Of a DNA stretch of 64,000 nt, positions 49,100 to 50,640 are shown in pieces. This DNA comes from a virus (taxonomy: Duplodnaviria > Heunggongvirae > Uroviricota > Caudoviricetes), in IMG/VR virus record IMGVR_UViG_3300028833_000081, positions 7,731 through 71,730 of that record. One strand, given 5' to 3'. How positions within the stretch are numbered: the stretch's first letter is position 1; each line of letters begins with the position of its first letter. The notes under the pieces were generated by a model. The model had not been told where the DNA came from, searched no databases, and saw only the letters and a program-made list of their open reading frames with translations. The translations under genes and the position numbers were made by a program.

Positions 49100-50640
49100 G
49101 TGACTTGTCTACGAATAAGTTCAGGAATGGGTCAAGGCTTTTGGAAATTCCTATGATCCATTCCTGTTTTTAAGTTTCTAAAGACGACGTTCTAGCTTAT
49201 GCCATCCAGAGATTTAGCCTATCTGGAGCAGCCTTCTTAGCAGCAGGTTTCAGCTAGCTGGTTATGTTGTGAATCCAGACTCCTTAGTCGTCTTTCGGGA
49301 AGACCATAGTTCTTGGCCTGTGGTCTTCCCCATCGTTTGCACACTACCACAACACAAACACACGGTAACGTGCATGGCTGATTCCCTCAGCCATTCGTGC
49401 CGAATTCACTAACTGTTAGTAAGCATGACGCCATAATCATGTCGAATTCAGATGTGACAGTAGGCACGAAGAACTTACCTCCCTGAGTAGTACTAAAATA
49501 GTACTATGGTTAAGAAGGCACACTTCATACAACAGTTCTTCTTCCATTTCTGATGTACTGAAGTGTGCTATCCTTTTAAAAATGTTGGCAAGATAACGGT
49601 GTTGCAAAGGAGCCAGAGCCTTACCCTTCGCGGTGGTTAGACGAGTGCCAGATCGCTTAGGACACTTGAACGTGCGTTAGGTTAACCATTCCTACGTATA
49701 TTGGCAGACCATGGGATCCCGACCTGCCCCAACAAAAAATTTCATCTTCTAAAAAGGCTCTGTCAGGGTTTGTTCATTTTCCTTGGCAGAGCCTAAAAGT
49801 TTTTAGTTACCTAGAAGACCTGCGCAGTGTTTTCCACTTCTAGGTAACTTGTGTTTCATGATTGGAGAGCCCCTTGCTGCAGATGTGCTGCTCAAGGGTT
49901 TTTCATGATGTGTCGCAAGACACTCTACCGATGATTGTTGTGCTCATCCTTCGTCGGTAGACGAACTTAATAATGCTGTCTGGATATTATGCTTACAGTG
50001 TATAATACTACCCCTACACCCAGACAGCAATCTCACTGGTCACTGTCGGATTGCCGCTTGATCACCGTGAAAGGGGGGCCACGTGGATTTTTGAATCTAC
50101 GTGGCTCTTTTTATTTCGCAATTCAGCTAACTATTTTATTGAACAGAATTTTAGACCGGAGGACATCGGAAAAGCTTTGTGGGCTAGTGATAGATTCACA
50201 AATGTACGTCAGACCGTCCGATGCGAGAGACAACCCTAGGATTTTTGTCTCTTGGGTGCGCCCAACTGTTAAGCCGTCAGCGACGCACTTCCGACTAGAT
50301 TTTAATGCTCCGATAGCTCAGTTGGATAGAGCAACTGCCTTCTAAGCAGTAGGCCGAAAGTTCGAATCTTTCTCGGAGTACTAAAGGTTACTTAGATACA
50401 GCATCTTTGCACGGGCTTGCTGACAGTGCATAAAGGTGTATTCGGTAGTGAGCGATTACAGTGGTAAGCAAGACGCTCTTCAACTGCCTGAGCTCGGCAG
50501 TTATACTGAGAACATCGAAGGATTAGAGGCTGGTTCTATCTCTGTTGGCTAGGCACATTCGCTGCTGATTATATGCTCCATTGGAGCTGCCTTCAAAAAA
50601 GACGTAGATAGAGCACTTTAATCTGAAGTATCGAACTTGT
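49100..50640 (+). ncRNA. Array of structured non-coding RNAs (tandem hairpins and multibranch domains)
   Basis: About 1.5 kb without a credible ORF; over 15 consecutive stems of about 5-14 bp with unrelated sequences, e.g. 49122-49166, 49297-49330, 49518-49568, 49755-49794, 49805-49849, 49924-49961, 49974-50029. Confidence 0.7.
50307..50380 (+). tRNA. tRNA-Arg (anticodon UCU)
   Basis: GCTCCGA TA GCTC AGTTGGATA GAGC A ACTGC CT-TCT-AA GCAGT AGGCC GAAAG TTCGAAT CTTTC TCGGAGT A; followed by CTA, so CCA is not encoded. Confidence 0.95.

Follow-up and report, generated by a model that had tools for sequence, protein, structure and literature searches.

What is encoded in the largest ORF-free stretch of a 135.7-kb contig from a rumen jumbo phage related to AR9, PBS1, and phiR1-37? 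The window analyzed here is a 64,000-nucleotide portion of this contig (positions 7,731–71,730 of IMG/VR record IMGVR_UViG_3300028833_000081). In it, the stretch is flanked upstream by the gene for a GroEL-like phage chaperonin (47311–49074, + strand; PHROG 5725, PF00118), which serves as a synteny anchor, and downstream by that for the β subunit of a non-virion RNA polymerase of the AR9/phiR1-37 type (51348–52832, +; PHROG 2943; 29–32% identity to AR9, PBS1, phiR1-37, and PALS_2). The gene-free gap is kept in relatives with chaperonins of at least 60% identity (L001, L003, L004, L005, L009, L010, L011, and L273) and is absent in those with ~51% identity. Further copies of the island are present in ERZ27257202–7 and SRR9006729/30. 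Isolated phages searched with the island matched its tRNA only. The locus is a stable-RNA island: tmRNA, absent from the window, occurs here in L003, L005, and L009, and a second tRNA has been added in L011. A strongly folding hairpin region (51260–51330; z about −5), also found in L011, lies between a small ORF and the polymerase gene.

The first kilobase of the gap (49105–50104) folds beyond chance (z −17.5 against shuffled sequences), whereas 50145–50690 does not (z −0.42; 37 of 100 shuffles were as good). An earlier sequence-only reading of the locus, which took 1.5 kb to be almost entirely stems, is thus not confirmed over that length. The helices it named are present, with 13 perfect Watson–Crick pairs in 49805–49849 and 10 in each of 49297–49330, 49518–49568, and 49974–50029, as is a GCAA tetraloop at 49910–49923. 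The G–U pairs on which it based a preference for the + strand are found in 49755–49794 (two) and 49924–49961 (one), and both the array and four relatives fold better on the + than on the − strand. A promoter-like motif with an ATATAAA core (49087–49096, +) heads the island, a putative promoter that occurs at the same place in L001, L003, L004, L005, L009, L010, L011, and L273 and has 11 similar copies in the contig. The array ends, as had been proposed, in a terminator-like hairpin with a U-tract (50071–50117, +; 19 bp, fold p 0.93), which a simple terminator scan misses; L011 and L004 have a different hairpin and U-tract at this place. The array has a conserved promoter-like motif and a terminator-like end, with no conserved ORF. 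Minus-strand ORFs were rejected as candidate genes, as they are not conserved.

Between these boundaries the array consists of a series of hairpin modules, all on the + strand. Hairpin A (49122–49166; 18 bp, p 0.94) holds in its 3' arm the sequence CTATGATCC (49151–49159), which has 10 copies against ~1 expected, most of them between genes, and is found again in every relative's island; it is probably a phage promoter element or protein site. Module B (49181–49294) is a three-way junction, with P1 formed by 49181–49188 and 49287–49294, P3 by 49258–49261 and 49275–49278, and an unpaired anti–Shine-Dalgarno (anti-SD) linker at 49279–49286. The same topology and linker are found in L011/L004, L001/L003, and L273, with P1 covarying. 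Module C (49297–49330) is a 13-bp hairpin with a conserved 8-nt loop, UUCUUGGC. This loop is kept in four lineages above a stem in which 7 of 17 pairs have changed on both sides, and 90.5% of cells are paired compared with 31–58% in slid controls, a covariation that is only indicative because it comes from four sequences. Modules D (ACAACAC loop) and E (anti-SD-like UUCCC loop) occupy 49338–49393, and equivalent loops sit on different stems in L011, L001, L009, L010, and L273. A long interrupted hairpin follows (49394–49463; fold p>0.9) with a CAU-containing loop at 49429–49436, for which no homolog was found.

Module F (the anti-SD sequence ACCUCC, a stem, and AUGGUUAAG) and module G (a long hairpin with a CAU-containing pyrimidine loop, 49536–49549) together span 49472–49572, with module F conserved in L011, L004, L001, L003, and L273 on a covarying inner stem. 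Module H (49755–49794) is a 14-bp hairpin whose loop and 3' arm (49767–49786) are predicted to pair with the start of the Fibrobacter HU message. Five further hairpins (49805–49849, 49856–49908, 49910–49923, 49924–49961, and 49974–50029) complete the series, and a motif at 49878–49900 is common to the window, L004, and L011.

Comparison among relatives reveals how this series evolves. Overall sequence identity between the islands of different clades is low, and short loops persist on rebuilt, covarying stems. The module order B–C–D–E–F–G is common to two clades, with whole hairpins inserted between modules; hairpins have been gained and lost, and some confident pairs differ even between close relatives. 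L009 and L010 have the tRNA first, with the hairpin modules in a different order after the tRNA and tmRNA. The loops persisting on rebuilt stems, the other module order in L009 and L010, and the terminator separating the array from the tRNA argue for modules as opposed to a single ornate fold. A polycistron of structured small RNAs, one of the options offered by the sequence-only reading, is supported by the conserved gap, the covarying stems, and the rearrangement of modules. Its description of the RNAs as unrelated is misleading, as their loops share a theme: they are pyrimidine-rich and G-poor (64–69% pyrimidine and 8–13% G in the window, L011, and L009), and many are complementary to the SD sequence or to a start codon with its first codons. 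The loops look like antisense seeds for host mRNAs, which was absent from the options then considered. What the sequence itself shows is that the stems of the array are stable, that conserved loops sit on stems that covary, and that there is complementarity to mRNAs of Fibrobacter.

The part of the island beyond the terminator appears to be a second unit. It begins with another promoter-like motif (50126–50144, +; identical in L011) and a tRNA leader of ~150 nt with weak shared structure, the two covering 50126–50306. The tRNA-Arg(UCU) at 50307–50381 (+) had been described as embedded in the array; the tRNA is indeed present and instead comes after both the terminator and this second conserved motif. 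In some relatives its anticodon loop is interrupted by a group I intron (L001 8786–9467, L004 3815–4239, L009 2147–2825, and L010 2070–2750), which has an HNH gene in L001, L009, and L010 and lacks one in L004; the tRNA is intron-free in the window, L011, and L005. An RNA of ~280 nt follows (50386–50667, +), multibranched and closed by a helix between its 5' and 3' ends (p 0.9 in the window and L011). It is limited to the sublineage of the window, and although double-sided changes are seen at 26 of 82 consensus pairs, they come from only two independent sequences. A model of this RNA found no other copy, and assignment as tmRNA, RNase P, or SRP was rejected for want of fit by Rfam. We would guess that it is a processed structural RNA. 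The tRNA-Arg and the ~280-nt RNA may be taken as a second unit within the same stable-RNA island.

Several other RNA features accompany the island or the contig. The phage tmRNAs (L009 2930–3301, L003 1652–2008, and L005 7021–7334) encode an unusual tag ending in AYAFRAAA, compared with YALAA in Fibrobacter, which may redirect or escape tag-dependent proteolysis. Directly upstream of tmRNA is a two-part motif (GGUAAAUCCUAC ... UAGGUUC) with variable stems, resembling a split T-loop, at L001 8368–8412 and 8452–8510, L005 6943–6998, and L009 2843–2902; it was found neither in the window nor in Rfam. In place of the tmRNA of the near-identical L003, L001 has three hairpins with nearly alike loops (AUGUACGC; 8580–8754), and a Tad2-like (Thoeris anti-defense) gene lies directly 3' of its RNA island (9496–10044). 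A degenerate tRNA-like element with an extended anticodon arm is located inside the hairpin array of L009 (3773–3862) and L010 (3001–3081). There are two atypical tRNA-Ser calls. The one at 27599–27672 (−) of the window has acceptor-stem mismatches and an anticodon loop that is short, and it lies a little upstream of a gene; the other is at 114085–114161 (−) of the whole contig (G000).

The host of the phage is probably Fibrobacter. Eight of the nine loci matched by the phage patatin gene are from Fibrobacter, with the best single match in a Bacteroidaceae MAG. This MAG (L030 (G001:C7) and L020) also has a distant phage-type chaperonin (27%), and so its large contigs may be misbinned phage. 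The genes of the phage use strong SD sequences; Bacteroidales largely do without SD use.

BLAST comparison of the array with 61 Fibrobacter genomes was dominated by 49225–49251, with up to 22 of 22 nucleotides identical in several genomes and E<0.004 in 20 of the 61; the match was found in none of 41 Bacteroidaceae genomes. This segment of module B (49224–49251, +) is antisense to Pro-Ala-Ala-Lys-Lys repeat codons in Fibrobacter H1-like (HC2) and HU-tail mRNAs. The genes concerned encode Lys/Ala/Pro proteins of 50–120 residues or HU tails and match Pfam HC2 (above cut-off) and Bac_DNA_binding. H1-like genes have 9–14 sites each and other genes with such tails 1–4, in a target that is low in complexity and also present in unrelated mRNAs. 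The predicted duplex has an energy of −47 to −52 kcal/mol. In L011 the corresponding arm matches at 31 of 33 positions (E 6.5e-7), with 36 genomes at E up to 0.001; it differs from the window at synonymous positions, and its unit is doubled with a five-codon (15-nt, in-frame) period like that of the host repeat, such that the window and L011 segments each fit a different host repeat unit. The segment is not a phage gene, since its minus strand is closed by stops. Part of it (49231–49247) is identical at 15 of 17 positions to the anticodon arm of the neighboring tRNA-Arg, from which it may be derived, and the differences from the tRNA strengthen its predicted pairing with host mRNA, which is about −52 kcal/mol with them and about −34 kcal/mol without. 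No H1-like gene was found in the examined 2.4 Mb of a 3.84-Mb S85-type Fibrobacter genome. In L273, which belongs to a clade without this arm, the G loop matches the starts of H1-like genes; it has 1–4 sites per genome, one of which is an H1-like gene start in five of five preselected genomes.

A second candidate target emerged from comparison with 1005 start regions drawn from the same 2.4 Mb of the S85-type genome. Nucleotides 49767–49786 of module H are predicted to pair with the HU SD sequence and with 13 perfect bases across the AUG, ranking first of the 1005. Loop H of L004 has a 14-nt perfect match to the HU start, likewise ranking first, and that of L011 is weaker (9 nt). Beyond a 9-nt core, which is all that the window and L004 loops have in common, the L004 match continues downstream on the HU mRNA and the window match the opposite way. 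Shuffling gave P values of 0.07 (window) and 0.008 (L004), and by accessibility-corrected energy HU ranked 23 (window), 5 (L004), and 97 (L011), coming second by rank product. A bipartite HU site, whose genus-wide pattern was composed after the HU start had been seen, occurs in 46 of 61 Fibrobacter genomes, once in each except for one genome with two, with no hits in controls and in none of 41 Bacteroidaceae genomes. Neither an HU gene nor a matching start was found in the phage, of which 135 kb of a ~235-kb genome and a complete relative were searched. The repeat arm, loop H, and the L273 G loop all match nucleoid-protein mRNAs, and so the three modules point to one functional class.

Against starts of the S85-type genome, antisense k-mers over the AUG were modestly enriched in the window (z 2.6–4.5; accessible parts p 0.015–0.03; sense control z 0.3–0.7), as were those to the SD in L001 (p 0.005–0.01); L009 and L010 had no antisense enrichment against Fibrobacter starts. 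Matches of at least 12 nt over the AUG were found for four genes as compared to 0.73 expected (P 0.037). When the arrays of L001, L009, and L273 were compared with Fibrobacter by BLAST, only scattered chance matches resulted (best E 0.018–0.056), and the window array against the 2.4 Mb of the S85-type genome alone reached 36.5 bits, which falls short of the 90th percentile for ordinary phage windows of 1 kb. Unrestricted duplex ranking yielded no clear winners. An unpaired candidate antisense to sbcD spans the AUG (49737–49755, +; 19/19 in 2 of 61 Fibrobacter genomes); this nuclease is a plausible target, with a match compatible with chance. ExbD is a lead: its predicted pairing with loop H of the window (−34 kcal/mol) and module F of L011 (−33 kcal/mol) requires the stems to open and does not exceed the best chance scores. 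A 23/25 match of 49756–49780 in two genomes is intergenic and was taken as chance, and a 22-nt anti-RBS pattern from L009/L010, with 3 mismatches allowed, occurred in none of 61 Fibrobacter genomes. For the HU and repeat modules there are just two independent lineages, and most loops have no assigned target.

We favor, with a probability of about 0.6, the reading that the array is a trans-acting antisense battery that would repress translation in the host; a tRNA-Arg unit of its own and the ~280-nt RNA come after it. The array (49100–50117) would be transcribed as one unit displaying single-stranded antisense seeds, and during infection its RNA, whole or processed, would act in trans by pairing with host mRNAs. 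Generic seeds against the SD (the B linker, E, and F) and loops against the start codon (G, H, and others) would keep ribosomes from loading, with module H occluding the SD and AUG of HU mRNA. With the Lys/Ala/Pro repeats of H1-like mRNAs, HU-tail mRNAs, and others like them, the module B arm would form duplexes of 25–33 bp, long enough that stalled elongation or RNase III recruitment is possible. The expected effect would be less new host nucleoid protein coating phage DNA, along with a wider damping of host translation; the phage would benefit from having fewer host DNA-coating proteins while it transcribes with its own polymerases. Because the exposed loops mirror host messages, above all those of HU and the H1-like protein, we predict that these host chromatin genes are probably silenced by phage RNA. 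A more far-reaching proposal, which we hold tentatively and at somewhat less than even odds, is that the ~18 hairpins form an evolvable battery in which each loop would be a guide against a different host mRNA; lineages would have reached HU and the H1-like protein by different loops, one possibly derived from the tRNA-Arg arm, resulting in an RNA-only shut-off of host chromatin by a phage with its own RNA polymerases.

Other explanations have to be weighed against an antisense battery. The loops might bind proteins or ribosomes, making the array a scaffold or decoy, for example of anticodon-loop mimics against tRNA nucleases or of sponges for S1, RNases, or RNA-sensing defenses. The resemblance of 49231–49247 to the tRNA-Arg anticodon arm suggests such a function, as do the conserved loops C and D, which have no convincing mRNA target, and the Tad2-like gene after the L001 island. 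Yet where the segment departs from the tRNA arm, a stem pair is lost and A37 is replaced while predicted pairing with host mRNA improves, the doubled unit of L011 keeps the in-frame period of the host repeat, and the HU match is left unexplained, all of which make this account unlikely. Defense decoys or antitoxin mimics, as had been suggested from the sequence, likewise have little in their favor, there being no repeats and no toxin neighbor. We judge it very unlikely that the region amounts to a single large ornate RNA of the ROOL, GOLLD, or OLE kind, held in a tertiary or oligomeric structure. Such an RNA would fit the retention of the B–C–D–E–F–G order across two clades, the adjacent tRNA in a rumen phage, and the closed, multibranched ~280-nt element, but not the insertion of whole hairpins, the internal terminator, the lack of any Rfam match, or the different order after the tRNA and tmRNA in L009/L010. 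The giant GOLLD- or ROOL-like RNA of the sequence-only reading is unsupported on these same grounds, its order varying by clade and no long-range pairing being conserved in the 1-kb part.

The array might instead set the timing of translation in the phage itself through pairing with the leaders of phage genes, module F being the complement of a TTAACC...AGGAG leader common in phage genes. TTAACC is enriched ~12-fold upstream of phage genes, and in the complete relative a 10-nt match to the anti-SD of module F is present at two genes; however, antisense matches to phage starts remain at chance level in G000 (135 of ~235 kb) and G002, and similar leader motifs occur in Fibrobacter, leaving this a very unlikely account. 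Least probable is that the region consists of decayed tRNAs, terminators, and mobile-element scars without current function. The low overall identity between clades, the confident pairs that differ between close relatives, and the degenerate tRNA-like element of L009/L010 are what decay would produce. Against it stand the conserved junction topology, the folding z of −17.5, the gap present in all relatives of the clade, and covariation under conserved loops, which in module C largely refutes this reading.

The antisense battery that we favor may be compared with known systems. Like ROOL and GOLLD, the array would be a large structured RNA near phage tRNA genes and of rumen origin (PMC12286853, PMC5737381), but it has no covariance-model match and is modular and rearranged, not one conserved fold. 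Rfam searches found no ROOL, GOLLD, or OLE in the window, at gathering score or up to E 10, or in seven relatives; the hits were limited to tRNA, tmRNA, and group I intron, and within the window the tRNA-Arg was the sole hit even at E 10. Neither a CRISPR array nor an RNA anti-CRISPR of a repeat type modeled in Rfam was found, with no direct-repeat family of more than two copies, in agreement with the lack of a repeat unit remarked earlier, and no Rfam CRISPR hit. Nor does the array have the tandem units of a ToxI-like type III antitoxin, and the neighboring ORFs are that of the chaperonin and one that matches no known family. The region is a modular RNA island, distinct from ROOL, GOLLD, and CRISPR. 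It does have one feature of a trans-acting base-pairing sRNA, namely predicted accessible seeds complementary to the conserved HU start and to Lys/Ala/Pro repeats.

Staphylococcus aureus RNAIII has many hairpins whose C/U-rich loops seed pairing to the SD regions of several mRNAs, with the duplexes being cut by RNase III; it is chromosomal, 514 nt long, encodes delta-haemolysin, and is controlled by agr. The array would similarly be a long multi-hairpin RNA with loop seeds against SD regions, and has no Rfam or sequence match to RNAIII. The Cuckoo, RSs0680, and alpha-r14 sRNAs are likewise built of neighboring hairpins that keep anti-SD-like loops on stems that vary (PMC4615179). Cuckoo RNAs, however, are found in Alphaproteobacteria and have 2–4 hairpins that all display the same 9-nt C-rich loop (PMC4615179), a motif with no copy among the array loops, whereas the array has ~18 hairpins with different loops, several of them apparently target-specific. 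PreS of lambda and VpdS of VP882 are phage sRNAs that act on host mRNAs and favor phage replication; unlike the array, they are single short Hfq-dependent RNAs of temperate phages (PMC12197685).

A literature search returned no multi-guide array in a jumbo phage and no report on Fibrobacter jumbo phages, and nucleoid-protein (HU, H1-like) targets for such arrays were not encountered. If the favored reading is right, HU and H1-like protein would restrict large phages, anti-SD hairpin arrays beside phage tRNAs would have a testable function, and non-coding phage DNA could serve for predicting hosts; for HU the prediction is sharp, with one site per genome. Known phage countermeasures to nucleoid proteins are mostly proteins, such as T7 gp5.5, T4 Arn and MotB, and LUZ24 gp4. 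The one known RNA example is HnrS, an sRNA of an EHEC prophage that pairs with the ribosome-binding site of the mRNA for the host nucleoid-associated protein Hha (hha) and represses its translation; it was termed the first phage sRNA shown to counter xenogeneic silencing (PMC13502914). The likeness to HnrS lies in a phage RNA directed at the start of a host nucleoid-protein mRNA, a pairing that is predicted in the present case. In HnrS a prophage has one RNA of 66 nt and a single main target (PMC13502914), whereas the array here, in a jumbo phage of the AR9 type, has multiple modules over 1 kb; its predicted targets are HU and the H1-like protein, with long predicted pairing inside coding repeats.
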